DNA of 64,000 nucleotides from a virus. The stretch lies in UHGV virus genome UHGV-1550212; one strand, 5' to 3'. Shown piece after piece: positions 3,285 through 52,624 of this stretch (position 1 is the stretch's first letter; each line of letters starts with the position of its first letter). Both the position numbers and the translations under genes were made by a program. The notes below the pieces were generated by a model. That model saw only the letters and a program-made list of their open reading frames with translations, searched no databases and had not been told where the DNA came from.

Positions 3285-3289
3285 ACAAA

Positions 3290-4585: not shown

Positions 4586-4652
4586 TGTGCATGAATGTTC
4601 AATATGTAAATTCACTATATGTACATATAACACGAATATTCAAGTTAGATGC

Positions 4653-6644: not shown

Positions 6645-6653
6645 TTTGTGACA

Positions 6654-6707
6654 CATCATCACAAAACAAGCCAGCAGAATTGTCTGCTGGCTTGTTTTGT
6701 GATGATG
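6654..6707. terminator. Perfect 24-bp-stem hairpin (loop aattgt) between convergent terminase and DHFR genes; likely bidirectional terminator
   Basis: catcatcacaaaacaagccagcag / aattgt / ctgctggcttgttttgtgatgatg; begins 10 nt after the terminase stop. Confidence 0.6.
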
Positions 6708-6712
6708 TGCTG

Positions 6713-9254: not shown

Positions 9255-9293
9255 ATTTGGGACGGATTCTTGTCTTTACTTTACTATATGAAA

Positions 9294-9320
9294 ATTGTAC
9301 CACAAGTTGTCAAGTTTTGC
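9294..9320 (-). promoter_or_regulatory. Promoter-like motif (sense strand GCAAAA-N15-TACAAT variant)
   Basis: Plus strand reads attgtaccacaagttgtcaagttttgc; member of the recurrent intergenic motif family. Confidence 0.4.
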
Positions 9321-9363
9321 TAACTTTGACGACTTGTGGTACGTCTGTTTTGTACATATGCAG

Positions 9364-9732
9364 TTATTTGATTGCACGTTCAAACATTCTGCAGCACCAG
9401 TCTTTATATGCAGGATTGCCCTTGACATCTGCTCGGAATGCGCAGTTGATAAGAGTCTTCTCCTCATTAACAAAGCATGCATAACGGCAGTTTGCGCAAC
9501 AACGAGCATCTTCTTGTTTTGTGCAAAATGCTGCACATGTCATGTCATCTTCTGTGTTGCGAATTGTTTTTGTTGGCGTGTACTCATAAGTGCACTGACA
9601 AATGCCATTATGCTCACGATGAAAGAAGCAATTTTTGCAAATATGTGCAACTTCTTCAACTGGTGCTGATGCTGCATATGTTTGTTCTTGCTCTACTGCA
9701 GACTGTGCAGCAACTTTAGTCTTTTTTGCCAT
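9364..9732 (-). CDS. Cys-rich protein (about 13 Cys in 123 aa), possible zinc-binding regulator
   Basis: Start moved to MAKKTKVAAQ (ATG at 9732); the longer ORF-track N-terminus would read through the tandem repeat at 9759-9834. Confidence 0.45.
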   Translation of the reverse strand: MAKKTKVAAQSAVEQEQTYAASAPVEEVAHICKNCFFHREHNGICQCTYEYTPTKTIRNTEDDMTCAAFCTKQEDARCCANCRYACFVNEEKTLINCAFRADVKGNPAYKDWCCRMFERAIK

Positions 9733-9758
9733 TGTATCAAATATTTGTATTTGTAAGT

Positions 9759-9834
9759 TGTTTTGATGCAAAATGCAAAACAATATAAAATTGTTTTGAT
9801 GCAAAATGCAAAACAATATAAAATTGTTTTGATA
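9759..9834. repeat. Tandem direct repeat, 2.3 copies of a 33-bp unit
   Basis: ttgttttgatgcaaaatgcaaaacaatataaaa repeated head-to-tail; each unit contains the inverted pair ttgttttg / caaaacaa. Lies between the ligase stop (9836) and the Cys-rich gene start (9732). Confidence 0.8.
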
Positions 9835-9835
9835 T

Positions 9836-11740
9836 CTACAAAGATTTGAACAATTCCTCGTATGTTACAATTTTCTTGCCTTTTGCAAGTGCTGCTTTCA
9901 TTTTGTTCGACAGCTTGTTGACATCATTTGTGACAACATAGTCACATGCATCAATGTTTGCACCGACATCTTCAAGCTTACCATTTGCTGCATCAATAAA
10001 TGCGCCTTTTGTAGCCCAAGTAGGCTTAGGCGAGCCCGTCATGACAACTTTGATTGCTGCATCATTTGTAGACGTCTCTTTATGCATTTCATTAAACATT
10101 ACGAAGCATTGCGGAAAATGCTTGAGCAATCTTTGTATGACATTCAGCTTTATGAGCTTGTCAATTGGCTCCATGCTCAAGCCCTTAAAGTCATACTGAC
10201 AATTGCTGAAGTATGCAGATAACTGATACGCTGCTTTGCTGCCAAGACCAGGAATCTGCATGCATTCAATGAAATGCGATAAGTAAATGCTACTGAAGCG
10301 TTCACGTAAGCCTGCAATGACTGTACGGTCATTTTTGCTGTTTGTGTCAAACTGCAGCAGCTCAAACAGTCGTTCATTGTCAACTTCTTGCACAATGCAG
10401 AACAAGTCTTCAATTGTGGGCGCATCAGAGAATGTCAACATGACATCAAGATTGTCTTGTGCAATAAGCAAAGCCTCGCAAATTTTCGTAGCATAAACCC
10501 AACCAAGCCCATCGATGTTAAGCTTGCAAACGCCTTTGATAAACCTCGTGCATCTTGCAAATTCCTCAGGCATCATCAAGTGAATGCCATCGACATATGC
10601 ATGTACAGGAATGTCAGCTTTGCTGATATCACCAGGTTCAATACATTCTTGAATGTCTGGAATAATGTCGCCGCCCTTTTCAATACGAACAAGAGCGCCA
10701 GGCCAAATGTCATTTGCATGCAAAAAGCCATAGTGAAATGCTGAAGCTGCTTTTACTGTAGTGCCATCAAGCTCAACAGGCTCAAGTTCAACTCTCGGAA
10801 AAAGCTCACCATTGATTCGCTGACGCCAATCAATTCTAGTCACTCGAGTTACAGCAGACATTGCATCAAGCTTCAATGCAACCATGTTTGCGTATTCTGC
10901 TGCATTTGCAAACTGCTGCTCAATCCACAAGTCATCTGCAAAAGGCTTGACTACAATGCCATCAATGCGATATTTGAATTCTGGGCGTTCATTAGCAATT
11001 TTTGTGCAAGTTTCTGCAAACTCATTGTAATCAGTGACTTCAAAGACTTCTGCAATGAATTCTGCAGGCCAGCCAACTTTAGCAAGAGCATCTGCAGGAT
11101 TGGTTTGCTCATATGTTTTGCCATCAAGTGTGTCAGTCAACATGTATGCCATAGGGTCAATGTCTTCCATGCCACACATATCTAATGACTTCACAAATGC
11201 CGCAGCAGTATTACGCTCATTTTTGTATTTAACTGAGCCATCAGAGTTGAAGTGATACTTTTGTGCAAAAATGTCTTTTGCAATGACAGCTTCAAAGCGA
11301 ATCTGATATGGCTGTTCTGCTGCAGCAAGCTGCATCGGCACTTTGCCTGCTACAACAAATTTGCGCGTGACATCATAGCCCGTATAGCCATCACCACGAG
11401 TAACAACTTTTAGCAATCTGCCATCAGTGTCGTAATGTGCTTCACAGCCCATGCCGTCATACTTGTGCATAAGTAACATTTTATAACCAACAATGTTGCA
11501 CACAATATCATGCAATGTGGTTGTAAACTGTGACTTTGTGTGAATTGCAGCAAGACTTAATGCAGGTGTAAGATGCTTAACTTCTTGCTTGTTTGACTCT
11601 TCAAAACGAATCTTATGTTTAATGTCATCATTTGCAAGAAGCTGCTGTTCAAGAGCATCAAATGCATCATCAGACATTATCGGATTGCCCGCATAATATG
11701 CAGCTATAGCGTCATGGTACGTATTGAGCATGTCAGTCAT
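9836..11740 (-). CDS. ligA: NAD-dependent DNA ligase (LigA-like)
   Basis: Adenylation motif KYDGMGCEAHYDTDGRLLKVVTRGDGYTGYDVT (KxDG ... TRGDG); N-terminal Ia-like YYAGNPIMSDDAFDALEQQLL; 634 aa. Confidence 0.8.
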   Translation of the reverse strand: MTDMLNTYHDAIAAYYAGNPIMSDDAFDALEQQLLANDDIKHKIRFEESNKQEVKHLTPALSLAAIHTKSQFTTTLHDIVCNIVGYKMLLMHKYDGMGCEAHYDTDGRLLKVVTRGDGYTGYDVTRKFVVAGKVPMQLAAAEQPYQIRFEAVIAKDIFAQKYHFNSDGSVKYKNERNTAAAFVKSLDMCGMEDIDPMAYMLTDTLDGKTYEQTNPADALAKVGWPAEFIAEVFEVTDYNEFAETCTKIANERPEFKYRIDGIVVKPFADDLWIEQQFANAAEYANMVALKLDAMSAVTRVTRIDWRQRINGELFPRVELEPVELDGTTVKAASAFHYGFLHANDIWPGALVRIEKGGDIIPDIQECIEPGDISKADIPVHAYVDGIHLMMPEEFARCTRFIKGVCKLNIDGLGWVYATKICEALLIAQDNLDVMLTFSDAPTIEDLFCIVQEVDNERLFELLQFDTNSKNDRTVIAGLRERFSSIYLSHFIECMQIPGLGSKAAYQLSAYFSNCQYDFKGLSMEPIDKLIKLNVIQRLLKHFPQCFVMFNEMHKETSTNDAAIKVVMTGSPKPTWATKGAFIDAANGKLEDVGANIDACDYVVTNDVNKLSNKMKAALAKGKKIVTYEELFKSL

Positions 11741-26920: not shown

Positions 26921-27164
26921 TTTGTGTATGTTCTTGATTTGCTTGTTCTGCTAAGTTGTTTATGAATGCTTTGAGCAATGTAATGATTGTTGTTAGCAAC
27001 TGAATTTGAAACAATACAATGCTAAACACGACAATTGCTACAACGCAAAATGAAATGAAGAGCATATTGATGTCAAATTTGTTTGCTATCAATGTTTGCA
27101 GCCAAGTTATGACTGCAAACATTGAAATCAGTATGAATGCTTTGTGCTGTGATAACGATTTCAT
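26898..27164 (-). CDS. Small two-helix membrane protein (holin-like topology)
   Basis: 88 aa, two hydrophobic helices and a polar C-terminus; not adjacent to a lysin, so function open. Confidence 0.35.
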   Translation of the reverse strand: MKSLSQHKAFILISMFAVITWLQTLIANKFDINMLFISFCVVAIVVFSIVLFQIQLLTTIITLLKAFINNLAEQANQEHTQNDSGTAN

Positions 27165-27880
27165 TTGAAATGTGTGGATGTTGGATTAGTGTCGGTCATT
27201 CTAACATGCCAATCATAAATGAACCATCTTGCGAGGTCATCATTTTTGATGTTATGAGTTTTGACATACTGTTCAGGACCTAATGCCTCACCAGTTTCAG
27301 GATTGACTGCGAAATGAGATTCATCTACATTAGTAGACTTGTTTTTGATGTTTGAGATTCGGAGCTTTGTATGCAGTTCAGTGCCATCAGATTGCAGTGT
27401 TTTGACATAGAATGCAGTTTTTGTCGTTGCTTCATTGTCAAGCCATACTCCAAACTTAACTCCGTGCGATTTCCAGTATGCATTGTCAGCATCCCTGATT
27501 GCTTTGAAGTTCGGGTCATCCAACCAAGGTTTGAAGACGTATACAGCATGTTGTTCTTTTCGAGTGATTTCGCCTTTGCCTTCACAAACTGTATGATACA
27601 GCCGCATTGCAGTTTCTTCATCAAAATAGTAAGTCAGATTGCCTGGCTTATCAAATGTGCCAAGCTGTTGACCATCGATTACAAGAATGAATGTGTACCG
27701 CGAATCCTTAAAGAATTCTACTTGTACAGGCTGTTTGTGCTGTTTGCTGTTAAGCAGTCTGTCAATTGTAATGACTGCCCAGTTGGTGCCTGTCTTTGTT
27801 TTGTTGCCGTGAAACAGTTCAGGATATGAAACTGTGTAAGGCAATGCTTTGTACTTCCAATGTTCATTAAAGCTTTTCAT
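27161..27880 (-). CDS. Hypothetical protein (239 aa)
   Basis: ORF preceded by three tandem promoter-like motifs. Confidence 0.5.
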   Translation of the reverse strand: MKSFNEHWKYKALPYTVSYPELFHGNKTKTGTNWAVITIDRLLNSKQHKQPVQVEFFKDSRYTFILVIDGQQLGTFDKPGNLTYYFDEETAMRLYHTVCEGKGEITRKEQHAVYVFKPWLDDPNFKAIRDADNAYWKSHGVKFGVWLDNEATTKTAFYVKTLQSDGTELHTKLRISNIKNKSTNVDESHFAVNPETGEALGPEQYVKTHNIKNDDLARWFIYDWHVRMTDTNPTSTHFK

Positions 27881-27963: not shown

Positions 27964-28110
27964 ATTGTACTACAAAAATCCCAAATTTGCACACTTTGAT
28001 AATCAAAAGTGCAAACAAAATTCAAAGTTATATTGTACATCACAAAGTGCAAATTTGCACTTTGTGATGTTAAAATGCCCCATTGTACAATATTTTGTGC
28101 TATTTTGCAC
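27964..28110 (-). promoter_or_regulatory. Three tandem promoter-like motifs, the middle one embedded in a perfect 26-bp palindrome (28041-28066)
   Basis: attgtactacaaaaatcccaaatttgcac (27964-27992), attgtacatcacaaagtgcaaatttgcac (28032-28060), attgtacaatattttgtgctattttgcac (28082-28110); palindrome cacaaagtgcaaatttgcactttgtg. Confidence 0.5.
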
Positions 28111-28701: not shown

Positions 28702-28735
28702 GCAAATATATTTTTGTTTGTATATGTACATAAAA

Positions 28736-28765
28736 GAGCAAGTTCTCAATGTGGAGAACTTGCTC
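28736..28765 (-). terminator. Hairpin (12-bp stem gagcaagttctc / gagaacttgctc, loop aatgtg)
   Basis: Perfect inverted repeat downstream of the tRNA/non-coding region on the minus strand. Confidence 0.4.
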
Positions 28766-29159
28766 AGCTGACCTGTTGCCAGGTGAAAGCGTGGTGCAGC
28801 ACCTTGTGCTGCAATGGCTATGCTGCCATCGCCATAACGGGCTGAGCATTGCCCAGCATCATTACACGACCAGCTGCATTAAGCGTACGCTTTGCTTTGT
28901 TGAAAAATTTGCCAGTTATCTGGTATCTGCACATCTATTCAAGCGACCTACTATGCAATCAAATGCCTGTCGAGCCCAATGTTTGAGCAGTTGTTTGTCA
29001 GATGCTCAGCTGACTGCAGTCTTTCTGAGTGTATCAAGTTCAGCGATTCTGCATCTTTGCTAAATGGCAATAGTTCAGGTGGACTCGCCGAGAATCGAAC
29101 TCGGGTCTTACATAGCGCATCCTTGACTTGGTCCTGTAAACAGGGTTGTCAACATGCAT
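28766..29159 (-). ncRNA. Candidate structured non-coding RNA region downstream of the tRNA cluster, including a tRNA-like 3' half at about 29075-29105
   Basis: About 390 nt with no credible ORF, more GC-rich than surroundings, internal repeats (gctcagctgac twice) and a T-arm/acceptor-like CCGAGTTCGATTCTCGGCGAGTCCACC for which I could not find a pairing 5' acceptor strand. Confidence 0.25.
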
Positions 29160-29230
29160 TGCAATACGACAGGACTCGAACCTGCGACCTCGGATTGGAC
29201 GTCCGCGCTCTTACCGCTGAGCTACGTATT
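29160..29230 (-). tRNA. tRNA-Gly(UCC)-like, atypical (G at position 33, G1:G72 mismatch); possibly a pseudo-tRNA
   Basis: Minus strand GAATACG-TA-GCTCAGCGGTAAGAGC-GCGGA-CGTCCAA-TCCGA-GGTC-GCAGG-TTCGAGT-CCTGT-CGTATTG; canonical D and T arms, anticodon TCC. Confidence 0.5.
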
Positions 29231-29321
29231 CTTATCAATTGACTGCACTGCAATGCAATCAATCGTGCCAATGATATTTGACGCATAATTGCAGTTATGC
29301 GTAACAATTCAAATGTCATTG

Positions 29322-29394
29322 AGCCAACTGCAGGAGTCGAACCTGTAACCTGCTGATTACAAATCAGCTGCTCTGCCAATTGAGCTAAGTTGGC
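29322..29394 (-). tRNA. tRNA-Thr(UGU)
   Basis: GCCAACT-TA-GCTC-AATTGGCA-GAGC-A-GCTGA-TTTGTAA-TCAGC-AGGTT-ACAGG-TTCGACT-CCTGC-AGTTGGC-T; acceptor stem 7/7 paired. Confidence 0.8.
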
Positions 29395-29476
29395 ATAAAG
29401 TCGTTGGGCCATTGCAACCCAAACCTATCATCTTTGTCTAACCAAAGATGCAAGTGTTCTCTTACACCACGACTTG

Positions 29477-29548
29477 TAGCCGAACTTGGAGTCGAACCAA
29501 GCTTTCGAGAATGAAAATCTCGCGTCCTAACCGATAGACGAAACGGCC
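29477..29548 (-). tRNA. tRNA-Glu(UUC)
   Basis: Anticodon arm CGAGA-TTTTCAT-TCTCG, T arm CTTGG-TTCGACT-CCAAG, D loop with GG; acceptor stem has two mismatches at its base, so ends are +/- 2 nt. Confidence 0.65.
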
Positions 29549-29731
29549 AAGAGCAGTTCAAGTCTGCAGCATTGAACTGCGGAAACAATGCCTGTACGGG
29601 CAGCAAATTGTGCAGATACAGCGACATTGCAAAATCACACCGAACCAAGTTTGTGGCTCTTCTGTCTCATAAAAACAAGTAATCATTACACTTGGCACCA
29701 ATGATTCTGATGTAAAAATCGGTGTGTTATG

Positions 29732-29816
29732 CGGAGAGTAAGGGATTCGAACCCCTGGTACGTTGCCGTACAGTGGTTTTCAAGACCACCGCCATCGACC
29801 GCTCGGCCAACTCTCC
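29732..29816 (-). tRNA. tRNA-Ser(UGA), long variable arm
   Basis: GGAGAGT ... GTGGT-CTTGAAA-ACCAC, variable arm TGTACGGCAACGTACCA, T arm AGGGG-TTCGAAT-CCCTT, acceptor 3' ACTCTCC perfectly paired. Confidence 0.85.
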
Positions 29817-30010
29817 ATAAAACATTGCATAAGCATTCTTATCTCTTGATGAGACCAAGTAGCTAATTTGGCAAGTTTGTTATATCTATCGTGACTGTTG
29901 CAGTTTGTTTGTCACTCAATACACAAAACTTTCGAACATTCATTGACAGCACTGCAATATCGCTTTTTAAGCTTAGCCATCAATGTATTTATGCAATGTA
30001 TAACAATTCG

Positions 30011-30092
30011 TAGCCAAACCGGGACTTGAACCCAGACTCCTAATGGAACAACATTTTGAGTGTTGCGTGTCTACCAATTCCACCATTTGGCC
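30011..30092 (-). tRNA. tRNA-Leu(CAA), long variable arm
   Basis: Anticodon arm CAACA-CTCAAAA-TGTTG, variable arm about 13 nt, T arm CTGGG-TTCAAGT-CCCGG, acceptor GGCCAAA/TTTGGCT. Confidence 0.8.
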
Positions 30093-30182
30093 ATTTACAA
30101 ATGCAATCTATTTCACAACTGTTTGCATTTGCATTGTTTAACACTAAAAATATGATTCATCTAATCAAAAACCAGAGAATTG

Positions 30183-30256
30183 TAGGGTAGACAGGACTCA
30201 AACCTGCGACCACGTGGTCCCAAACCACGCATTCTAATCAACTGAACTACTACCCT
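30183..30256 (-). tRNA. tRNA-Pro(UGG)
   Basis: AGGGTAG-TA-GTTC-AGTTGATTA-GAAT-G-CGTGG-TTTGGGA-CCACG-TGGTC-GCAGG-TTTGAGT-CCTGT-CTACCCT-A. Confidence 0.85.
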
Positions 30257-30262
30257 AAGTAG

Positions 30263-30334
30263 TTGAACCGTCTGGACTCGAACCAGAAATGGCTGAACCA
30301 AAATCAGCTGTGTTACCGATTACACCACGATTCA
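30263..30334 (-). tRNA. tRNA-Gln(UUG)
   Basis: TGAATCG-TG-GTGT-AATCGGTA-ACAC-A-GCTGA-TTTTGGT-TCAGC-CATT-TCTGG-TTCGAGT-CCAGA-CGGTTCA-A. Confidence 0.85.
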
Positions 30335-32200: not shown

Positions 32201-32208
32201 GGTTGCTT

Positions 32209-32221
32209 GGGGGTGGGGGGG
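32209..32221. repeat. Homopolymeric G tract GGGGGTGGGGGGG in the 24-nt spacer between two minus-strand genes
   Basis: Plus strand ttgggggtgggggggtca; striking in AT-rich DNA. Confidence 0.8.
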
Positions 32222-32224
32222 TCA

Positions 32225-32734
32225 TCATAACATTATGAGTTGTTGACGTGCTTGCATCTGCTCAATGCAATCATCACCTGTTATGCACAAATACTGAGGC
32301 AACTTGTCAAGTGAAATGAGCGTGCAAATGTATGGGTCAAAGAACTTATTTGTTGATGCAAGCAAATCGTAAAATAGACATGCTTGTTCTGCATCAAGTC
32401 GAGTAACAACAAGTCTATTGTAGCCAGGCGCATCGAAACCACATTTAAGCAAATGTCTACCGACGCGTATGTCATTGCCCATTGTCAATGTTGCTACAAG
32501 CATGCTGTCACATTCTACTGCAGGTTCTGAGTAGTGCCAGTTAATTGATGCATACGCAGTTAACACATACATGCCAGCAGTGACGTCCCATTCAGACTCT
32601 GCAATAATTGCCCATGTGCGCTTACCATTGTGCTCAATTTCAACAAAATCACCCCTTGTATATGAATCTACAAGCTTTGCAGTTATCAGATACTGCAGTT
32701 GTTCTATGCTATTGTATTTGATGCAAGTTTTCAT
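32225..32734 (-). CDS. Hypothetical protein (169 aa)
   Basis: ORF ending with TGA immediately before the C-rich spacer. Confidence 0.5.
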   Translation of the reverse strand: MKTCIKYNSIEQLQYLITAKLVDSYTRGDFVEIEHNGKRTWAIIAESEWDVTAGMYVLTAYASINWHYSEPAVECDSMLVATLTMGNDIRVGRHLLKCGFDAPGYNRLVVTRLDAEQACLFYDLLASTNKFFDPYICTLISLDKLPQYLCITGDDCIEQMQARQQLIML

Positions 32735-37677: not shown

Positions 37678-38370
37678 GTGCGGTTTACGCTCGTAGATGA
37701 TATGAGCATACATTGTGCATATATGCCAAACATATATGTGTTTGCTGATGGCAATGAGTATGCAATATCTCCAATAGGTTCACAATCACTTGATTATGAC
37801 GGCTCATGTATTGTACGTATTACCAAGTCAGACTGGATTGAAATGTTTGGCGCTGGTGTTACACAAGGCAGACTTAAATTTGGCTATGGTACAAATGAGC
37901 TTGAATTTTGTGAATTGATAAGCACTGCAACTGCTGAAGTCAAATTCGTTATTGGTTATGAGCAAAACCAGTCTGTCACTGCAACATTTAGTGATTTGCT
38001 GCATAATCCACTTGTCGCAACAAACAACAATTCTGCACAAGCAACAATTACATATACATTTAGTCATGCGACATTTAGAACAGCAGCATTTACGATTATC
38101 GGTAATGTGACATTTATTCCAGGCGGTGATGTAAGTAAAACAGCTATAATTCTTGCGCCTAATTATAGTATAACAATTAAGTACACTACGTCATCAACGC
38201 CAAAACTATTTGAGCATTCAATGACATTTGAGCGTAACAATGAAATGCTTGAGTATGTTGGCACTGAAGTAGACAGACATGCGTATTGTCAAATGAGACG
38301 TAGAACTACGGGCTCAACTGTATATTGTCATGTGTATATTGATGATAGCATGCTTAATATGATGGATTGA
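37678..38370 (+). CDS. Hypothetical protein (230 aa), one of only two plus-strand genes
   Basis: ORF begins with GTG at 37678 (ATG alternative at 37702); followed by a strong hairpin. Confidence 0.5.
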   Translation: MRFTLVDDMSIHCAYMPNIYVFADGNEYAISPIGSQSLDYDGSCIVRITKSDWIEMFGAGVTQGRLKFGYGTNELEFCELISTATAEVKFVIGYEQNQSVTATFSDLLHNPLVATNNNSAQATITYTFSHATFRTAAFTIIGNVTFIPGGDVSKTAIILAPNYSITIKYTTSSTPKLFEHSMTFERNNEMLEYVGTEVDRHAYCQMRRRTTGSTVYCHVYIDDSMLNMMD

Positions 38371-38385
38371 TAGTTGTAATATTGC

Positions 38386-38430
38386 GCAAAAAGAAAGCCG
38401 AACTGAATTTCAGTTCGGCTTTCTTTTTGC
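38386..38430. terminator. Perfect 21-bp-stem hairpin with flanking A/T runs; bidirectional terminator between convergent genes
   Basis: gcaaaaagaaagccgaactga / att / tcagttcggctttctttttgc. Confidence 0.7.
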
Positions 38431-38446
38431 ATACGCTTATGCTATG

Positions 38447-41400
38447 TTAGAACAGAGCAATGATGTTGTCGACAAACATAAAGCATGCATGCAGCAATTC
38501 AGCTGTCGGCATCATCTCATATGCTTTGCCATCATACATGAATCGCACAGTGACAATGGGTGACACTTCATCTTTGAATGCAAGCACAGGAACATCTACA
38601 CCTGCAGTCAATTGCACTTCAACATCCTTGTCAGCTGCTACATCTTTAGCAATCACTGTAATATCTCGACAACGACCAGCAGCTACTGCATATCTAACAT
38701 TTGTCAATGTAGCAGACATGTCAGCAAGAGCTTGCATGATTTGTTGCTGAGTAAATTGCTCAACTGACTTCTTTGCAGCCTTGACAGCTTCGATATCTTG
38801 TGTGTTTGCAAGAATCAATGCTACCACTGCAGGGTCAGAAGTAGTCCACCAACGACCATCAATTGCAAGCCACAGTCGATTGCCATTGACGTCAATTGCA
38901 TATGCATATTGAGTGTTTGGCGCCAATGCGACTTTTCGAGTGTTCTTTAAGAACTCTGCCGCATCAGGAGCCGCAACAATGTTCTTGACAAATGACGGCA
39001 GCATTTCAGCTTCAAATGTTTGTGTAGCTTCAAAGACACCGCCATGTGCATCGTCATCAATTCTGCCTGCAAAGCGTTTGCAGATTTGAATGATTGTAGC
39101 CATGCCTACCGTTGAAACGACTTGACGTTTCATTGCAGGCATTTGCAGAGGCATTGTATCTTGCGCAATGTACAATGATGTCGTATTAATAGTGTCAAGT
39201 ACTCGTGCAATGTCTGCAGTATCAACAATTACAAACCAGTCGCCGTCATGGCAGACAATAAGTTGCTTGCTGTCATTTGCATATGTCAGCAATACTGCAA
39301 TGTCATTTTTGATTGAGATTGCAGGAATCCATGCTTGTTGCAGAGGTAAGTCAAGATTTGGTGTGCCGCATGGATAAAGCGCAGATGGCTGCATAATTGA
39401 GCGGCAATCAAAACCTATTGAACTTACAAGCTGCAGAACTTCGCCACGAATGCAAGCATTACTTTGATTCTGTGTCATGTCATATGCAAGCCAACTGCAA
39501 ATTGCTTTGATTGATGACACTGGAAATGCTACGCCAATTGTGCTGTATGCAATCTTGCCGTCTGCTGACAATGACTCATCAACTGCAATGCCAGCATCAT
39601 TGAACAATGACATATCAATTGAACAATGGAATTCGCCACCAGGCATTGGACCTGCAGCAATGCCATAGCCAGGACCAAGTGACAGCCATTCTTTCATTGC
39701 ATCTGAATTGTATGACGAGAACTTGTACAACACGTATGACTTATGCGGGTCACTAACTGACTTGCGAATCTCCATCTTGGCGCCTGCTTTCTTTGCAATT
39801 GCTTTAATGTTATCGGCGTGCTTCTTTGCCTCAGACTTATCAAATTTGCCTTCATCAAGTTGAGCAATCTTGCCAAGCGCATAAGCAGTCCATGCAATTG
39901 ACAATTGATTCAGCGCGCCAACTTCTGACCACGACTTTTCTGCAAACCATGAGCCAAGACCAGATTTGTCAAGAGTTTCTTTGCGTTCAGCTTTTGTTGC
40001 AGCATCCCACCACTTGCCTGTTGCAGGCAACACAACGTCTTTGATTTGCTCCTTGCGAAGCTCATTGACACCGATTTTGCCCTCATGAACATGCGCATTT
40101 GCATGATATGCTCTAAGAGCAGCCAATGCAGCATCATATGAGTCATAGTCTTGCGGCCAGAATTCCCCATTCTTGCCAATGATGCCCCATACGCCCTTTG
40201 ACTTTTCTTGTATGACAGAATCTTTGTCACCGGCAGCTTCATTGACAAATGCTGTGTTAAGATACGCAATGACATGCTGAAGCTCTTTGTCATCTGCAGA
40301 CTCATTGACATTCTTAGCGTAATCACCAAGAATTGATTCAACTTTGCCACGCAAATTGCTTGGCATATCATCAAGGTCAAGATTGCCATACTTCGTGACT
40401 TCTGGTTGAGACAATCCAAGCAATTTCAACACCTTATCACGGTACTTGTTTGCGAGCTTCTTCCAAATCCAGCGGAATGTTACAGCGCCAATCAGAAATT
40501 TGATGAGGCCCTCATCAAGTACATGCTGTTCACGCAAATATGACGTAATGCATGAACGTTGACCATCAGTCAAGTCAACCCACATTTTATCAAGCAATAT
40601 TGAATCTGGGTTGCTTGCAATGCCAGCACCACTGCGGTTGTACACATTCATTCTGTCAATTGCTGGTGTTGCGTCATTGTCCCACCAAGCTTGTGCATAT
40701 GAACATCCAGCAGGATTTGAGATTGCCTCATTAATGTACATGACATTGAAGATTTCGCAAAGACGCTTGCGGCATTCATGTGACATAACTTGCCATTGTT
40801 CGGCAATTTTGTCTTCTGACCACTGCAGCAACATGTCTGCAAATTCTTTACCTGCGCATTGCTCAACTACACCATGTTTTGAACGCCAATAATTGTCAGG
40901 CTCAATCTGCGCAATTGCATGAACAAATGAAGTCAGATTGTATGACGCAGATTCGCAAATGCAATGCTGTTCAATGTAGCTACGAACAGCAAGTGCAGTG
41001 TCTTCCGGCAAGTTGCTATATGGTGACTCATAGATGTTTGCTTGCTGATTGAGCATATGTGGAGCAACTTCTGCAATGATTTGCTTGCGAACATTCAATG
41101 GCCATGCATTCCATGAAGATTCTACAGATTCATCAAGATGCATGCCAATTGCATCCATAACTGCATCAGCATCTTTGCCCAACAGTTCGTCAAACAATTT
41201 GTCTACTACTGCAGTGTCATATCGCAAATTTGGCTGAGCTTTTGCAAGAGCATTCATCATTGCTTTGCGTTCTTGTTTTGACGCATTGTTCCATGTGCCA
41301 GCATACAATTCTGCTGTCGCGCTTTCACAGACAATATCTGCAGCAGCATATGCTTGCTTCATAATGTCCATGAAGATTGACTTCATTTTTGGATGCATCA

Positions 41401-41653
41401 CATGATACTTTTCATTGTAGATGTCAAGTACGCCATAAACATCTTTCAATGGTCGAATGCTTTCTGATGAGCCGAATGATGGCTTCAAAATTGAATTGCA
41501 TACACGTTCAACGGTGCCACGCATAAACTTGACATCACTTCGCTTGTCACTGATAGACATAAATGCATCAATGACAGACTTGATGGTGTCATCTGCAGCT
41601 TCATTAACAAAGCCTACTGGTCGACCGCCAAACTTGTTTGTTTGTGTTGTCAT
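38447..41653 (-). CDS. Large hypothetical protein (1068 aa)
   Basis: Uninterrupted ORF; no catalytic motif recognised by eye. Confidence 0.6.
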   Translation of the reverse strand: MTTQTNKFGGRPVGFVNEAADDTIKSVIDAFMSISDKRSDVKFMRGTVERVCNSILKPSFGSSESIRPLKDVYGVLDIYNEKYHVMHPKMKSIFMDIMKQAYAAADIVCESATAELYAGTWNNASKQERKAMMNALAKAQPNLRYDTAVVDKLFDELLGKDADAVMDAIGMHLDESVESSWNAWPLNVRKQIIAEVAPHMLNQQANIYESPYSNLPEDTALAVRSYIEQHCICESASYNLTSFVHAIAQIEPDNYWRSKHGVVEQCAGKEFADMLLQWSEDKIAEQWQVMSHECRKRLCEIFNVMYINEAISNPAGCSYAQAWWDNDATPAIDRMNVYNRSGAGIASNPDSILLDKMWVDLTDGQRSCITSYLREQHVLDEGLIKFLIGAVTFRWIWKKLANKYRDKVLKLLGLSQPEVTKYGNLDLDDMPSNLRGKVESILGDYAKNVNESADDKELQHVIAYLNTAFVNEAAGDKDSVIQEKSKGVWGIIGKNGEFWPQDYDSYDAALAALRAYHANAHVHEGKIGVNELRKEQIKDVVLPATGKWWDAATKAERKETLDKSGLGSWFAEKSWSEVGALNQLSIAWTAYALGKIAQLDEGKFDKSEAKKHADNIKAIAKKAGAKMEIRKSVSDPHKSYVLYKFSSYNSDAMKEWLSLGPGYGIAAGPMPGGEFHCSIDMSLFNDAGIAVDESLSADGKIAYSTIGVAFPVSSIKAICSWLAYDMTQNQSNACIRGEVLQLVSSIGFDCRSIMQPSALYPCGTPNLDLPLQQAWIPAISIKNDIAVLLTYANDSKQLIVCHDGDWFVIVDTADIARVLDTINTTSLYIAQDTMPLQMPAMKRQVVSTVGMATIIQICKRFAGRIDDDAHGGVFEATQTFEAEMLPSFVKNIVAAPDAAEFLKNTRKVALAPNTQYAYAIDVNGNRLWLAIDGRWWTTSDPAVVALILANTQDIEAVKAAKKSVEQFTQQQIMQALADMSATLTNVRYAVAAGRCRDITVIAKDVAADKDVEVQLTAGVDVPVLAFKDEVSPIVTVRFMYDGKAYEMMPTAELLHACFMFVDNIIALF

Positions 41654-41766: not shown

Positions 41767-44700
41767 TCAATTACATGCTGAATGTCCGCAGTTGGTGCAT
41801 CGAACACAGCCATCAAACTTGACCATGTCACCGCCGCATTCAGGACACTTTGCATACATCTTTGAGCCATCTTGAATATGCAGTTTCAATGCGCGCCCAA
41901 TTGCTTTGCAGAATGTTCCGACAGATGCAAAGCTTTTTGCAGTTTGGTCGACAATTTCGCCAAGGTCAATGCCATTGCGAAGCATCGTTGAGTACAGTCG
42001 AGTAATTGTTTGCTGCTCGTCTGAACCAAGACGTTCTGAGATATTATCATAGTGCTGCAAGAATGACAAATTATCACCAAGCTTGTAGTGCTTCTTATCA
42101 GTCTTTGTGATTGTCGTTTGTTCAATGCCTTGCAACTTGTCGAATTCATCTTTGTCAAGTTCAAATGCAAAGATTTCATAAGGTCGACCGTCATCACAGC
42201 CTACAAGAATACACCACTTGCGCTTATACACTGACACGCAATACACTGCAGCAGGCAATACTGGTTTTCGTTTTGAGCGATGACCAGATTGCAAGATGTG
42301 CGACTTGTCTTTTGACTGCTTGTCATCTTTTACGAGAACACCTGCACGTGAGCCATCTCGATAAATTGTGCAGCCTTTGCAGCCAGATTTCCATGCAGTC
42401 AGATAAATTTCACGAACAAGCTCTTTTGTTGCAGAGTTTGGAATGTTGACCGTTACAGAAATTGACGAGTCAATGTATTTTTGCAATGCACCTTGCAATT
42501 TCACCTTGCCAATCCAGTCAACATCTTCAGTAGTTGCCTTGTAGTATGGTGATTGAATAAGCAATTCATCAATGACTGCTTGCGGAGCATTTGACAACCA
42601 AGCTTTGATGCGAGACATTTCTGCTTCTGACCATTCAATGCCAGTATCTTTGACAAGAGTAAATTTGCCATCGCCAAGCTGCACTCGTTTACAAATCCAC
42701 TGCATCAACGGATAATGAACTACAGCGTATTCAATGAACTTGTCACCAGTAGTCTCATCAATGAAGTTGATGTCGGCCTCATTATCAACTGCAGTTGGCT
42801 TACGACGACGTTTATGTAGTGGCATAAATACGGGCTCAATACCAGACGTTGTCTGAGTCATCAAAGCTGTAGTGCCTGTTGGTGCAATTGTGGTCGTGTT
42901 AATGTTTCGACGGCCAAATTGCTGATAAGTTTTGATGTGCTCATCATCAATCAGTTCAGATAGCATACGCTGGATGAACTTTGATTGCACATCTGTGTCA
43001 TAGTCAAATATTGCAAATGAGCCACGAATCTTTGCCAAGTCAATTGACGCTTCATAAGTCGCCTTTACAAGCCATTGTTGCATAGTGACTGCGAAGTCAA
43101 TTGACTCCTGCGAGCCATAACGCAAGCCAAGCATCGCCATTGCATCGCCAAGCGCAAGGAAGCCCATGCCATATCGACGAGTGTTTGTCAGTTTATCATA
43201 AACTTTGTGCCACAAGTCAAGTTCAGTCTTTTTGATGTCAAAGTCTTCTTTATCTGACCGAACCTTTGCAATGATTCGTTGCACTGCTTCAATTTCAAGC
43301 TGCACAAGGTCATCCATGATGACTGCACAGTCATATGTATCTTTGTAGAATGTCTCAAAGTCAAATGATGCATCAGCAGTCCAAGGATTAAGCACATATG
43401 CAGTCAAATTGCGATGCGACAAAATGCAGCTTGCATATGCAGCGAGAGGCTGTTCACCGCAATTTAGTGTATTGACTACTTGCTTGTCATTGACAGCAAT
43501 AAAGAAATTGTGGAAGTCTTCTACTGTGCCATTGTACACATCTGCTTTGTTCATGTGACGTGTTGCAACGACTTTGACAATTGCATCACCAGTAGTGTCA
43601 ATGTCTGCATATTTGCTGCAGTCACCTAACGCTGCGCAAGCATCACAGCAATATGCTTGTTCACGATTGTCATAAGAAACTTCGAATTCTTTACCACAGC
43701 ACTCGCATTGTTTGATAACTGTGTTTCGTTCTGTTTTTACAAGCTCGTCAGTCTTCAATGCAATTGATAGCTTATCTGCGCTTGGCATATCAATTGCCCA
43801 CAATGAGTCATTTGTTGCAAGGTCAATTGCATTCTTGAAATCGCCATTAGCAAGCCTGAACTCATGATTTGCTGTGCAATTGATGACATGGCCGTCATCA
43901 AGCACAATTTGAATGATTTGCGCATTATGTGCAGTCAATCTGGGTCGACGCATTGTGCGCACAACGAGCTTGCCATTAGAGTCAAGACAATATACTGGAA
44001 TGTCTTCACCACTATCAGCAAGCTCTTTGAATGTCTTCAAACCTGAGCCATCAGCAACAAGTACTTTTGTGTCACCTGTGAAGCATGGATTTGTTGAGCG
44101 CTCTTCATACATTTTGCCATATGCTTTCGAGTTCGACTCTTCCATGATACGGTCCCAGAAGAACACGCCGGGTTCTGCAGATGCCCATACGTTATCAACA
44201 ATTTTGTCAAACAATGCTTTTGCATCTGATGTCTTATGCAGCTCTTGGCCATTAGAGCCACGCCAAACATGCTCAAACTGTTGTTCTGCAAGCACTGCAC
44301 GCATAAATGCATCAGTAAGCTTGATTGAAATGTTTGCGCCTGTGATTTTCGTCAAGTCCTTTTTTGCATCAATGAACTTATCTGCGTCAGGATGCTCAAT
44401 TGACAATGACAACATCAATGCGCCACGCCTGCCATTTTGTGCAACTTCTTTTGTTGATGTTGAAAAACGTTCCATAAATGACACTACACCAGAAGTTGTA
44501 ATAGCACTGTTATGCACTTCTACGTCTTCTGGACGAATGTGCGACAAATCATGACCAACGCCACCACGACGCTTCATCAACTGAACTTGCTCTTCATCTG
44601 TTTTGAAGATGCCGCCATATGAATCTGCGTCATTGCCAATTACATAGCAATTTGACATTGACGTGTAACCGCCAAGACCAATACCAGCCATTGGAGAACC

Positions 44701-44988
44701 ACCAAGCACAAACCGCTTAAAAGGCTCAAGTAAATATGCAAGTCGTTCTTTTGACAATACACGTTTGCCTGTCTGTTCTTCAAATTGTGATTCGATGCGG
44801 TCAAATTCATTGACCCAGCGCTCATGCATATCAGACAATGAGTGTTCATACAAATTGTCTTTGTCATGATGCAAGTATTTTGACATGCATATGTCAGCAG
44901 CCATTGAATCGCCTGTAAATTCATGCGTCAGTGTAGTGTGCACTTCAGCATATTCAGGCGACCCAATTTGAATGGGATGTTTTGTCAT
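41767..44988 (-). CDS. nrdJ: Ribonucleotide reductase, class II-like (NrdJ-type) catalytic chain, interrupted by an intein
   Basis: RRGALMLSLSIEHPDADKFIDAK signature; catalytic motif split as ...ERSTNP | intein | CGEQPLAAY, giving NPCGEQPL after excision; C-terminal zinc ribbon CPECGG ... CVRCTNCGHSAC. Start at MTKHPIQ (ATG 44988). Confidence 0.75.
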   Translation of the reverse strand: MTKHPIQIGSPEYAEVHTTLTHEFTGDSMAADICMSKYLHHDKDNLYEHSLSDMHERWVNEFDRIESQFEEQTGKRVLSKERLAYLLEPFKRFVLGGSPMAGIGLGGYTSMSNCYVIGNDADSYGGIFKTDEEQVQLMKRRGGVGHDLSHIRPEDVEVHNSAITTSGVVSFMERFSTSTKEVAQNGRRGALMLSLSIEHPDADKFIDAKKDLTKITGANISIKLTDAFMRAVLAEQQFEHVWRGSNGQELHKTSDAKALFDKIVDNVWASAEPGVFFWDRIMEESNSKAYGKMYEERSTNPCFTGDTKVLVADGSGLKTFKELADSGEDIPVYCLDSNGKLVVRTMRRPRLTAHNAQIIQIVLDDGHVINCTANHEFRLANGDFKNAIDLATNDSLWAIDMPSADKLSIALKTDELVKTERNTVIKQCECCGKEFEVSYDNREQAYCCDACAALGDCSKYADIDTTGDAIVKVVATRHMNKADVYNGTVEDFHNFFIAVNDKQVVNTLNCGEQPLAAYASCILSHRNLTAYVLNPWTADASFDFETFYKDTYDCAVIMDDLVQLEIEAVQRIIAKVRSDKEDFDIKKTELDLWHKVYDKLTNTRRYGMGFLALGDAMAMLGLRYGSQESIDFAVTMQQWLVKATYEASIDLAKIRGSFAIFDYDTDVQSKFIQRMLSELIDDEHIKTYQQFGRRNINTTTIAPTGTTALMTQTTSGIEPVFMPLHKRRRKPTAVDNEADINFIDETTGDKFIEYAVVHYPLMQWICKRVQLGDGKFTLVKDTGIEWSEAEMSRIKAWLSNAPQAVIDELLIQSPYYKATTEDVDWIGKVKLQGALQKYIDSSISVTVNIPNSATKELVREIYLTAWKSGCKGCTIYRDGSRAGVLVKDDKQSKDKSHILQSGHRSKRKPVLPAAVYCVSVYKRKWCILVGCDDGRPYEIFAFELDKDEFDKLQGIEQTTITKTDKKHYKLGDNLSFLQHYDNISERLGSDEQQTITRLYSTMLRNGIDLGEIVDQTAKSFASVGTFCKAIGRALKLHIQDGSKMYAKCPECGGDMVKFDGCVRCTNCGHSACN
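43462..44085 (-). mobile_element. Intein (208 aa) inserted at the catalytic Cys of the reductase
   Basis: Starts CFTGDTKVLV (block A), block B TANHEF, block F DVYNGTVEDFHNFFIAV, ends ...VVNTLN followed by Cys +1; middle has a small Cys cluster (CECCGK ... CCDAC ... C), no LAGLIDADG motif seen. Confidence 0.65.
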
Positions 44989-45029
44989 TGTAACAGTGCA
45001 TTTAAGTGTTTTAACTGTTTTATGTATAA

Positions 45030-45057
45030 ATTGTACAACAATGGGCAAAATTTTGCA
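45030..45057 (-). promoter_or_regulatory. Promoter-like motif (sense TGATGCAAAATTTTGCCCATTGTTGTACAAT)
   Basis: About 40 nt upstream of the reductase ATG; its TGCAAA element lies inside the left arm of the hairpin at 45055-45108. Confidence 0.45.
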
Positions 45058-45108
45058 TCAACTCAAAACAGCCAAGCAATTCATTGCTTGGCTGTTTTGA
45101 GTTGATGC
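45055..45108 (-). terminator. Perfect 25-bp-stem hairpin (loop ttca)
   Basis: gcatcaactcaaaacagccaagcaa / ttca / ttgcttggctgttttgagttgatgc. Confidence 0.55.
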
Positions 45109-45296
45109 GCACCTGCTATTTTACTTGAACAGCTTCTGCAAGAATGAAACTGCAATCTACTACATCATCTTCTTCGCATTTAGAATTGAAGTACTGCTGA
45201 GCATCCTTGGCATTGTCAAATGCTTCATACCATCGATGGTCAATGTAGTCTACTAATACAAGATAGTGTTTCATAGTTAGTTGCAGTTAGTTGTAG

Positions 45297-45752
45297 TTAT
45301 TGTGCTTTACCAGTGTAATAAGTGATTGCATCAATGTAAGGCTGTTCTTTAGACATTAGCCAATCAATGCCAAATACTGTATCTTGACGAAATCTTCGTT
45401 GTGCAATCATTTGAACTTCGATTGGCATATCTACGTCCTTGCCAAATCTGATTGTATTTGCAAGTTCTGTGATTGCATATCTGAGAATTGTGTCAGTACT
45501 CATTGTTAATGTGCTTTCCGGCAATTGCCAGTAACGTTCTTGGAATGCTCGATTTGCTGAGTAAGTCCAAAGTTCAAGTCTTGCATTTCTGCAATCATAT
45601 GAAACAATCAGACTTAATCCTTTTGTCCAGCAATGTGCTATCTTAATGATAGGGTTGTTGTCATTGATTGATGACATTGCTTGCAATCTTTCGAAATCTT
45701 TAACATATCTGTTATCATTCGAAAGCTGTTCCATTATTTCACCGTAAGTCAT
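45297..45752 (-). CDS. Hypothetical protein (151 aa)
   Basis: ORF with promoter-like motif at 45798-45825. Confidence 0.5.
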   Translation of the reverse strand: MTYGEIMEQLSNDNRYVKDFERLQAMSSINDNNPIIKIAHCWTKGLSLIVSYDCRNARLELWTYSANRAFQERYWQLPESTLTMSTDTILRYAITELANTIRFGKDVDMPIEVQMIAQRRFRQDTVFGIDWLMSKEQPYIDAITYYTGKAQ

Positions 45753-45797
45753 TGTAGTAGAGGTTAAAATATATTAATATATAATAATTATACTACA

Positions 45798-45825
45798 AAG
45801 TTGTCAGATTTGCACCAGAATGTAT
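45798..45825 (-). promoter_or_regulatory. Promoter-like motif (sense GGTGCAAATCTGACAACTTTGTAGTATAA)
   Basis: Recurrent motif upstream of the start at 45752. Confidence 0.45.
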
Positions 45826-45941
45826 AACAAGTTTGCATAAAAGTTTTACATAAAATGCAAACAAAACAAGCAGACTGCAATTGCAGCCTGCTTGCGCCAA
45901 AACAGAAAAAGATGATAACTTACTAACCCAAAAACCTAACT

Positions 45942-47483
45942 TTATCTACTTGCAGAATCCCGCATTGAAGTCATGACTTGCTCTTGAATTGTTATAGGCA
46001 TGATGTTGAAGTCTGACAATTCAGCAATGTCATCAACGTCAAGAGCTCTCAATGTATCTGTGGTGCAACAAGTCACAATGATTGACTTGCGAACAAACTC
46101 ATCTGCGACATTCCACAATAGTTGACAAATTGCTCGATTGTCAAGACAAATTTCATTAACTGTACGAACAAGACTGTACCATGCAGTCACATTGTTGCGT
46201 TTCAGAGTTTCAAGCATATATCGTGCAAGCCCAAAACCTGCTACATATAACCCAGTCTGTTTGTTGAATGACTCGATTGCGTATGCATCAAACAATGCTT
46301 CTGTCATCAAGGGCATTGCTGCAGTCATTCTGTAGTATCGATAGTCAACGCAGACAATTAGCCAGTTAACATATGAATTGACTGCATATGCATATGCCTT
46401 GAAGCCAAGGTCATTCAAGATTTTGCAAACAGCATTGTAAGTCGATTCATCAGCATTGCCAAAGTTTGCAAGCAACTTAACTTTCAGAATGTCTTCACCA
46501 ATTGCATTTCTTGTAGCAGTGAATGATGGCATACATGCAAAGCTTCTTTTGCAGATGTCTGTGATAAGTTGCTGTGCATCATTTACAAGTTGTCTTGCAG
46601 CCTCAGCACGTTTTTCAGACTGTGCTTGATATTTTGGTCGCAACTGTGATGAGCCAGTCGCAGCACCATATCGCATAGCAGCTTGCCAGTCCTTGAGATT
46701 ATTTTGCAATTCACGAACATAGTCTGCAGCAACCATTGCAGATGGAGTTCTTTGTTGCTCGATTAGTTTGTTGATGTTTGCAAGCACATCTGATGCAAAC
46801 ATATCTTTTGGCTTGACTCTTGCAATTTCAGCAAGCACTGCCGGTACACGAGCAATACCGCGAGGTTCATTTGAAACTACTACTGCATAGTCTACAAGTG
46901 CCTCACATACAAGCTGCTCATCAACAAAGTACTCAGGATTCTGCACAGCATCTTCAACAACTGCAATCAATGTTGCTCTACGATTGTCATCAGGTTTGTT
47001 GCCAAACAGCTCAATGTACAGCATGTCTGCTTGCTGGTCTGTCATTGAACCTGCGATGTCAATTGACTTTGCAAGTTTGTTAAGCAGTTCAGCTTGCTTA
47101 CTTGACAATCTGACTTTGTATGACGACTCTACGGCTTCTTTGACTGCTTTGAGTTTTCTATCAATGTCAAGGCTGCTTTCATTGACATTCATGCCGACAA
47201 TACTTGCAGCTTCAGTGTTAAATTGCTCAACAGTTTCTGCTGCAGTTATTGGCACTGACACAATAGATTGTTTTGCATTTGCTGCAAGCTGATTGAGTCG
47301 ATTGACTGCTTCAGAATCTTGCACAACTGCAAGATATCTTACGCACAGCTCATCAATCTGTGAAAGATAACTTTGGGTCATGTTTATCGAAAAAATGTTG
47401 TTTCTTGACGAATAGCTGTTGGATGCAATTTGCGGAAACACTTCGACATTTCTAAGTTCTGATGATGACAACAATGTTTCCAT
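45942..47483 (-). CDS. Hypothetical protein (513 aa)
   Basis: Long ORF; no motif recognised. Confidence 0.55.
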   Translation of the reverse strand: METLLSSSELRNVEVFPQIASNSYSSRNNIFSINMTQSYLSQIDELCVRYLAVVQDSEAVNRLNQLAANAKQSIVSVPITAAETVEQFNTEAASIVGMNVNESSLDIDRKLKAVKEAVESSYKVRLSSKQAELLNKLAKSIDIAGSMTDQQADMLYIELFGNKPDDNRRATLIAVVEDAVQNPEYFVDEQLVCEALVDYAVVVSNEPRGIARVPAVLAEIARVKPKDMFASDVLANINKLIEQQRTPSAMVAADYVRELQNNLKDWQAAMRYGAATGSSQLRPKYQAQSEKRAEAARQLVNDAQQLITDICKRSFACMPSFTATRNAIGEDILKVKLLANFGNADESTYNAVCKILNDLGFKAYAYAVNSYVNWLIVCVDYRYYRMTAAMPLMTEALFDAYAIESFNKQTGLYVAGFGLARYMLETLKRNNVTAWYSLVRTVNEICLDNRAICQLLWNVADEFVRKSIIVTCCTTDTLRALDVDDIAELSDFNIMPITIQEQVMTSMRDSASR

Positions 47484-52558: not shown

Positions 52559-52595
52559 TGTAGTAGAGGTTTGTTAATTTATTATTTATAGATAT

Positions 52596-52624
52596 ATAAT
52601 ACTACGACAATGCAAATTTTGCAC
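52596..52624 (-). promoter_or_regulatory. Promoter-like motif (sense GTGCAAAATTTGCATTGTCGTAGTATTATA)
   Basis: About 38 nt upstream of the start at 52558. Confidence 0.45.

Follow-up and report, generated by a model that had tools for sequence, protein, structure and literature searches.

A long perfect hairpin as a probable intrinsic terminator beside the ribonucleotide reductase promoter of an uncultivated gut phage

PeSLs (promoter-early stem-loops; Arbiol et al., 2010, PMC2839356; Comeau et al., 2014, PMC4122927) combine a stem-loop with a promoter in one motif; ORFans lie between such motifs and are shuffled by means of them. Their stem-loop may overlap the -35 box, which is one of several ordinary arrangements (PMC2839356). 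These terminator/promoter cassettes of T4-type phages are the closest described system for the locus analyzed here, which lies upstream of a ribonucleotide reductase gene. As in PeSLs, an intergenic stem-loop (a putative terminator or attenuator) adjoins and overlaps the -35-type box of a consensus phage promoter, and it flanks a small ORFan that is replaced or lost in close relatives, with a homology breakpoint at the stem-loop.

The window (the whole stretch of 64 kb that was analyzed) is phage DNA with about 40% GC and nearly all genes on the minus strand, and it belongs to an uncultivated phage of the gut whose genome has about 175 kb. Its genes include a T4-type large terminase, DHFR, an intein-bearing ribonucleotide reductase, an endolysin and seven tRNAs. 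The nearest kin of the terminase are found in Chryseobacterium and Tenacibaculum phages (32-47% identity), and across the whole window no Shine-Dalgarno sequence precedes any gene, the leaders being C/A-rich. Because the terminase kinship and these leaders both fit, the host is probably a member of Bacteroidota. Using positions 44000-46500 as a query, no DNA-level match to known phages was obtained from the INPHARED collection. In IMG/VR, a colinear relative about 95% identical was found on a 175.6-kb contig, and the locus is also present on many short gut-metagenome contigs.

The Pfam matches of the reductase were Ribonuc_red_lgC (4.9e-74), Intein_splicing and TSCPD, and the gene calls of relatives have the same length as ours. 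The Intein_splicing match covers residues 318-497 and is below the gathering score, and the TSCPD-like region is C-terminal. At the gathering threshold, Rfam reported only the seven tRNAs in the window and nothing at 45-45.3 kb; no cobalamin riboswitch or other Rfam family was found upstream of the reductase, and no NrdR-like palindrome was seen there by eye. Several other observations were made elsewhere in the window. ARAGORN called a permuted tmRNA at 28727-29169 (minus strand) beside the seven-tRNA cluster (29161-30334), and this call may be a false positive, as Rfam at the gathering threshold reported no tmRNA at these positions. A C-tract, GACCCCCCCACCCCCAAGCAACC, which could be slippage-prone, lies at about 32203-32225 (minus strand) directly 5' of the ATG at 32200, in a genome of 40% GC. 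At 9762-9831 (minus strand), just upstream of the ORF 9364-9816, a 33-nt unit occurs twice in tandem, each copy consisting of an AT-rich hairpin, CAAAACAATTTTATATTGTTTTG, followed by CATTTTGCATC.

The coordinates of all features are collected in Table 1. On the gene strand, the 151-aa ORF is followed by a 22-nt spacer, the 52-aa ORF, 7 nt and the hairpin, which begins after the TAG stop of the 52-aa ORF and ends at the reductase promoter; the TGCAAA box, 16 nt, the TACAAT element (45035-45030) and the reductase ATG complete the order.

Table 1. Coordinates of the features discussed (positions in the window, or in the named contig for the alternative cassettes).
Feature	Coordinates	Strand	Remarks
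Perfect palindromic hairpin	45055-45108	-	26-nt arms, 2-nt centre; kept in 22 related loci
Putative terminator core	45060-45094	-	12-bp GC-containing stem-loop, then UUUUGAGUU; predicted to end the two-gene unit 45752-45116
Predicted reductase promoter	45030-45057	-	TGCAAA box 45057-45052, 16-nt spacer, TTGTTGTACAAT 45041-45030; exact family member
Ribonucleotide reductase	41767-44988	-	1073 aa, ATG at 44988, downstream of hairpin; intein
52-aa accessory gene	45116-45274	-	ATG start, begins MKHYLVLVDYIDHRWYEAFDNAK; stop 7 nt before hairpin
Leader/spacer of 52-aa gene	45275-45299	-	CAACTAACT(G) x2.5; 22 nt from upstream stop to ATG
151-aa ORF	45297-45752	-	First gene of the same predicted transcription unit; weak DUF7000 match below threshold
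Predicted upstream terminator hairpin and promoter	45787-45895	-	Hairpin 45895-45866, then TGCAAA...TATAAT 45814-45787; would start the two-gene unit
Promoter family, I	9321-9294, 12469-12442, 16855-16828, 25777-25750, 27991-27964	-
Promoter family, II	28059-28032, 28109-28082, 35078-35051, 45057-45030, 45814-45787	-
Promoter family, III	50164-50137, 54844-54817, 57395-57368, 58555-58528, 59722-59695	-
Sister hairpins with stem and (G)UUUUG tail	41713-48, 48394-441, 45866-95, 59761-91
Sister hairpins with stem and (G)UUUUG tail, continued	57279-308, 24060-85, 54852-79, 22360-95
27-bp perfect hairpin	6652-6709		Between convergent terminase (4425-6644, +) and DHFR (6713-7216, -)
22-bp perfect A/U-flanked hairpin	38386-38430		Between convergent genes 37678-38370 (+) and 38447-41653 (-)
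Alternative cassette	L044:2440-2888		No gene called
Alternative cassette	L045:3462-3860		71-aa ORF MNELIKQQQICYNDK
Alternative cassette	L046:546-945		71-aa ORF MNELIKQQQICYNDK
Alternative cassette	L047:980-1380		101-aa ORF called

The original prediction had described a perfect 25-bp hairpin at this place, and the analysis bears out that it is real and non-random. The two 26-nt arms (45055-45080 and 45083-45108) are 100% complementary, which physically corresponds to 25 bp and a 4-nt loop, and the RNA fold is far more stable than that of shuffled sequences (-49.9 kcal/mol against -22.7 +/- 3.6, z = -7.7). By our own arithmetic (64000 x 4^-26), about 1e-11 perfect inverted repeats with 26-nt arms are expected by chance in 64 kb. 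Read as sense (minus-strand) RNA, the 5' side consists of an outer stem GCAUCAACUC (45108-45099), A4 (45098-45095) and an inner stem CAGCCAAGCAAU (45094-45083), and after the centre GA the 3' side consists of AUUGCUUGGCUG (45080-45069), U4 (45068-45065) and GAGUUGAUGC (45064-45055). The full hairpin was assigned -42.6 kcal/mol and the inner 12-bp stem alone -16.9 kcal/mol. The U-tract consists of four U followed by GAGUU, and its length is 3-5 U across strains, with just 3 U in three haplotypes. Because this tract is base-paired inside the full hairpin, the consensus terminator scan passed over it. The hairpin is built symmetrically from an outer stem of 10 bp, A4 and an inner stem of 12 bp, a design identical to that at 6652-6709 and 38386-38430, though here both neighbouring genes run in the same direction. 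Its sequence is unique in the window except for a marginal likeness to the hairpin at 6652-6709 (score 14 against 11-15 in the null), and the motif GTTGATGCAAAATT showed no enrichment (38 occurrences, 31 expected). We also considered a dispersed repeat or mobile element and rejected it: a pattern common to the two long hairpins matched only the same locus in IMG/VR.

The hairpin adjoins a genuine reductase promoter, as had been predicted, the promoter being an exact member of a family with 33 matches in the window. The further claim that one arm of the hairpin includes the TGCAAA box was right about the overlap and too wide about its extent, for only 3 nt (TGC, 45055-45057) are in the arm. The box itself is part of a palindrome, GCAAAATTTTGC (45056-45045). 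Alignment of gene upstream regions revealed that the bipartite motif TGCAAA(t)TTG...TTGTTGTACAAT recurs. Searching TGCAAA-N15-GTACAAT with at most 2 mismatches gave the 33 matches, compared with 8.5 +/- 3.0 expected (0 of 100 shuffles reached 33), and the exact copies, nine in number, are every one on the gene strand. From this recurrence we take TGCAAA-N16-TACAAT to be a phage-specific promoter family. The upstream box is often palindromic, TGCAAA(n)TTTGCA, which suggests that it may be bound by a dimeric factor, and it lies 16 nt from an extended -10 element. The family matches neither the Bacteroidota -33/-7 consensus nor the TTGACA of E. coli, and its layout resembles that of middle promoters with an activator box. 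Upstream of the locus, another copy behind a hairpin would drive the 151-aa/52-aa pair, making it a two-gene unit bracketed by hairpins.

Two additional features were noticed around promoters of the window. Positions 28037-28070 form a 34-nt perfect palindrome without spacer, ACATCACAAAGTGCAAA joined directly to TTTGCACTTTGTGATGT, centred on a TGCAAA/TTTGCA box; it sits within three tandem promoter copies (27964-28109) upstream of the gene 27161-27880 and could be an operator. Besides, the genes starting at 45752 and 52558 have a common leader, AACCTCTACTACA-ATG (45753-45800 and 52559-52605, minus strand), upstream of which is a very AT-rich stretch with TATAAT/TATAAA, and this combination may represent a second class of promoter or leader.

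About ten other post-gene hairpins in the window have the same design of a stem and a (G)UUUUG tail, on the gene strand, and putative terminator stems in this phage are generally long (12-27 bp). In the imperfect ones, the mismatches are G·U pairs as sense RNA and A·C as antisense. For this reason these hairpins are 5-12 kcal/mol stabler as sense RNA (sense/antisense: -26.5/-20.9, -37.1/-24.7, -23.4/-16.8 and -27.8/-22.1 kcal/mol), a bias that suggests selection at the RNA level on the transcribed strand. Our own tally of wobbles, about 7 sense-compatible against 1 antisense-compatible, is only suggestive (one-sided p ~0.035). The hairpin at 38386-38430 looks like a bidirectional terminator; there and at 6652-6709, where genes converge, a symmetric A-tract/U-tract makes sense as serving both directions. 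In the IMG/VR relative, the hairpin between terminase and DHFR (L042, about 2010-2065) has its 4-nt loop inverted (CAAT to ATTG or the reverse) and its outer stem decayed.

The variation of the hairpin was analyzed in a population sample of 22 related metagenome loci, from which eleven haplotypes were folded; a 19-mer scan of metagenome contigs gave 33 chance matches and 2 true loci. The stem is kept in 22 of 22 loci, with haplotype energies from -36 to -44 kcal/mol. Ten of the eleven haplotypes are fully paired across 22-26 bp, and the remaining one, with 6 A and 4 U, has a 2-nt bulge. Apart from this 6/4 haplotype, the lengths of the A-tract and U-tract covary (3/3, 4/4, 5/5). Three of the four stem substitutions, a small sample, are transitions that give G·U in the sense RNA only (A>G in L003, L006 and L008; C>T, A>G and C>T in L053), and the fourth breaks pairing at the outermost pair. 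The outer 10 bp are invariant in the 22 loci except for the three outermost pairs, and variability in the region is highest at the bases that directly adjoin the palindrome on either side; no covariation between these flanking bases was consistent across haplotypes. The loop is free to vary in sequence (GA, TC or a 10-nt variant).

Seven loci have GA at the hairpin centre and 14 have TC, and none has GC or TA. GA and TC are exact reverse complements, and both occur on otherwise identical haplotypes (L003 and L008, L011 and L012). When the state of the centre was compared with the SNPs on either side and with the tract length, all four combinations were present. This distribution implies recurrent inversion within the hairpin. 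An assembly artefact is unlikely by reasoning, because both orientations were obtained across assemblers and k-mers of at least 31 tie the centre to unique flanks. We infer that the flips and the symmetric indels are products of intrastrand template switching or of arm-to-arm recombination, processes by which long palindromes would stay perfect without selection on each pair. Hairpin-loop inversion is well documented in plastid non-coding DNA (PMC6824564, PMC12928735), where the small 'flip-flop' inversions are likewise recurrent and homoplasious, turn a spacer between perfect inverted repeats and are independent of the flanking haplotype; unlike them, the present case concerns a phage population sampled from metagenomes and putative terminators with centres of 2-4 nt.

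Upstream of the hairpin, the original prediction had pointed to an unannotated 52-codon ORF and named its conservation as one possible check. Both the reality of the ORF and selection on it are supported: on about 30 metagenome contigs it was called as a gene, always with 52 aa, and a homolog exists in another large phage. Nine of its 12 polymorphic sites fall on third codon positions, eight of the 12 are synonymous, and pN/pS is about 0.11 (28 synonymous and 128 non-synonymous sites), by which the ORF is judged to be under purifying selection. An exhaustive HMMER search over 1.8 billion representative proteins obtained a 45-aa homolog (47% identity, E = 9e-4) with the motif LVxYIDHRWxExFD; in a profile search its E-value improved to 8e-20 and a further copy was found on a 173-kb contig. 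On the contigs with homologs the gene lies amid other small ORFs, and in L022 no reductase was called within about 8 kb on either side. L022 (ENA ERZ18533978 NODE_71, 173 kb), which carries the distant homolog, has long uncalled stretches, for example 2894-5746 and 9152-10775, and either an alternative genetic code or deficient gene calling may be the reason for them.

The AlphaFold model of the 52-aa protein is a confident beta-beta-alpha-beta fold (pLDDT 89). Foldseek search with this model against the PDB obtained no significant hit (best E = 0.25-0.7), and the phage p56 Ung inhibitor, which was among these best hits, was discounted as evidence. Against BFVD only uncharacterised small phage proteins were obtained (TM 0.75-0.84, E >= 0.006), and the search of Pfam and PHROGs gave nothing. 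No meaningful match was found by tblastn with the 52-aa and 151-aa ORFs, and the only homologs found for the 151-aa ORF had at least 88% identity. Taken as a whole, the sequence comparisons indicate that the 52-aa ORF is a real accessory gene, optional among strains. It resembles phage 'morons' and ORFans in being a small accessory gene present in some strains with a putative terminator behind it, and it differs from them in having no promoter of its own, being apparently co-transcribed with the upstream ORF and, in some strains, translationally coupled to it.

A triple repeat had also been reported near the start of this ORF. It is present, but Tandem Repeats Finder gave 2.5 copies with period 10 and 93% matches, placed a few bases away from the predicted 45278-45304. 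There are two exact AGTTAGTTG copies and a degenerate third one that overlaps the stop codon of the 151-aa ORF. Elsewhere in the window the exact 9-mer is absent, and the repeat unit is not enriched as a recurrent leader element (19 occurrences in the window, 16 expected; exact copies only here). In L003 and L006 the spacer is shortened to 8 nt by a 14-nt deletion; in L002 and L009 the repeat is missing and the upstream ORF overlaps the start codon (ATGA); and it is also missing from the four strains with an alternative cassette. Only CAACT, immediately 5' of the ATG, is constant among loci with the 52-aa ORF. Slippage that duplicated part of a G-poor, C/A-rich and unstructured leader, a type of leader present at every gene of the window, accounts best for the repeat, which is dispensable and probably non-functional.

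In these four strains (L044-L047), an unrelated stretch of about 340 nt takes the place of leader and 52-aa ORF together, and the upstream ORF is a 153-aa variant. No paralog of the alternative-cassette ORF was found in the window. Sequence identity returns precisely where the hairpin begins and extends across the promoter into the reductase, so that hairpin, promoter and reductase are unchanged in these strains, and the left junction of the swap falls in the 3'-terminal part of the 151-aa ORF instead of at another stem-loop/promoter motif. The hairpin/promoter junction thus seems to bound a slot where strains exchange small accessory genes.

Considering these results together, we think it likely that the hairpin is an intrinsic terminator abutting the reductase promoter and part of a composite terminator/promoter junction that bounds the accessory-gene slot. 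Rho-independent termination in the sense RNA would end the unit of the 151-aa and 52-aa ORFs, and the hairpin would probably shield the reductase promoter from read-through and provide a stable 3' end for the upstream mRNA. The working part would be the inner 12-bp stem with its UUUUGAGUU tail; the upstream A4 would pair with U4, as in symmetric or bidirectional terminators, and the outer 10 bp would make the stem unusually long. An RNA hairpin is preferred to a DNA cruciform because of the G·U changes on the sense strand and because the U-tract tail is common to other putative terminators. The perfection and length of the palindrome would probably be maintained mainly at the DNA level, where template switching or recombination between arms could convert one arm to match the other and invert the centre. 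Hairpin and promoter may together form a composite junction at which small genes are swapped, as with PeSL motifs. The structure and its conservation, the promoter family, the replacement of the cassette, the flip and the symmetric indels are observed, whereas termination at the hairpin, the template-switch mechanism and the use of the junction in recombination are inferred.

Several observations stand against the favoured reading. The U-tract is short, with only three U in three haplotypes, is itself paired and was missed by the consensus scan; no convergent gene at the hairpin accounts for the symmetric design; the left cassette junction lies inside the 151-aa ORF, at its 3' end; and the wobble asymmetry is only suggestive (p ~0.035). 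Moreover, the outer 10 bp are dispensable for termination yet near-invariant. Their conservation is not explained by the terminator model, and we favour homogenisation at the DNA level for it.

Beyond being RNA signals, the long perfect palindromic terminators of the phage lineage might act as hot spots of recombination or template switching at the DNA level, where the hairpin-mediated strand switching responsible for flipped centres and equalised arms would create the breakpoints for ORFan exchange as well, a possible extension of the terminator reading that we regard as rather doubtful. If true, the terminator/promoter junction would be a built-in gene-swapping module in a Bacteroidota-infecting phage, mechanistically distinct from PeSL-PeSL homologous recombination, for which the stem-loop would have to be a genomic repeat, as it is not here.

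The invariant outer stem can also be read in another way, which we consider unlikely, namely as part of an RNA with two states similar to tI/sib of lambda. The terminated RNA would carry only the inner hairpin and be stable; with the outer 10 bp located past the U-tract, the outer duplex would form only in read-through RNA, which would be an RNase III substrate. Cleavage of the full 26-bp duplex would then process the polycistronic RNA or trigger decay of the upstream part (retroregulation). RNase III needs a duplex of roughly 20-22 bp, a length that the perfect 26-bp duplex in read-through RNA exceeds; the contrast between an outer stem invariant in the 22 loci and hypervariable bases immediately flanking it points the same way, as do the substitutions present, which give G·U in the sense RNA. 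On the other hand, the sister hairpin at 6652-6709 has a decayed outer stem in L042, a close relative, arm homogenisation at the DNA level gives perfection without selection, and natural phage RNase III sites usually have internal loops. The likeness to lambda, a terminator hairpin that becomes a longer duplex only in read-through RNA, is one of predicted structure, there being no sequence relation.

We find it very unlikely that the long stem is an adaptation resisting phage-encoded processive antitermination, by which read-through from upstream would be stopped here. Terminator stems >14 bp confer such resistance in pLS20, average terminator stems having 7-9 bp (PMC10325885), and phage stems in the window are generally long, at 12-27 bp. 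However, the window yielded no antitermination system, the stem before the U-tract has 12 bp, or 16 bp if A·U pairs are counted, and the extra 10 bp come after the U-tract, where they cannot aid termination at that tract.

Finally, the original prediction had proposed that the hairpin may form only when the promoter is not in use, and the reverse. Such a switch at the DNA level would work through a cruciform, or a protein bound to the palindrome, that removes or distorts the TGCAAA box. It is not supported, and we hold it highly improbable, since the overlap is confined to the last 3 nt of the arm and the evidence favours action at the RNA level. In its favour, negative supercoiling can cause a long perfect palindrome with a 2-nt centre to extrude, the repeated flips of the centre reveal that the arms interact in DNA at some frequency, and three of the six box positions are in the arm. 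Against it, the arm covers neither the -10 element nor the remainder of the promoter, the tolerated stem changes are G·U in sense RNA and would be mismatches in DNA hairpins, and other promoter copies have no such hairpin. Among PeSLs, stem-loops that overlap the -35 box make up an ordinary subclass, for which no switch function is claimed (PMC2839356).

The features of the locus are real and largely ordinary in kind, with a neat population-genetic footprint, and it is no new kind of regulatory device. With symmetric or bidirectional terminators it has in common a GC-containing stem whose helix is lengthened by A4 on one side and U4 on the other; in contrast to them, its neighbours are on the same strand, so that one direction is needed, and ten more base pairs lie outside the A/U tracts. 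Several differences also separate it from PeSLs. The predicted promoter is TGCAAA-N16-TACAAT without a Shine-Dalgarno sequence, whereas that of PeSLs is a sigma-70 consensus (TTGACA) with one and with AT-rich DNA upstream; the PeSL motif of about 100 bp is repeated in its genome, while here only the promoter half recurs and the stem-loop does not; the host lineage is different, being probably Bacteroidota; and mini-circles are not part of the evidence here. In addition, the left breakpoint of the swap is in a gene end and only the right one is at the motif, and as no stem-loop/promoter motif exists at the left junction, a PeSL-type recombination model fits one side only.

For annotation, the locus marks a transcription-unit boundary, recovers a 52-aa gene that a length cutoff had missed and provides a predicted promoter consensus for a gut phage of about 175 kb without a cultured close relative. 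For evolution, it brings together at one putative terminator, across independent metagenomes, inversion of the centre, symmetric indels in the arms and gene replacement ending at the hairpin, and so the PeSL idea would be extended beyond the T4-like phages of Proteobacteria.
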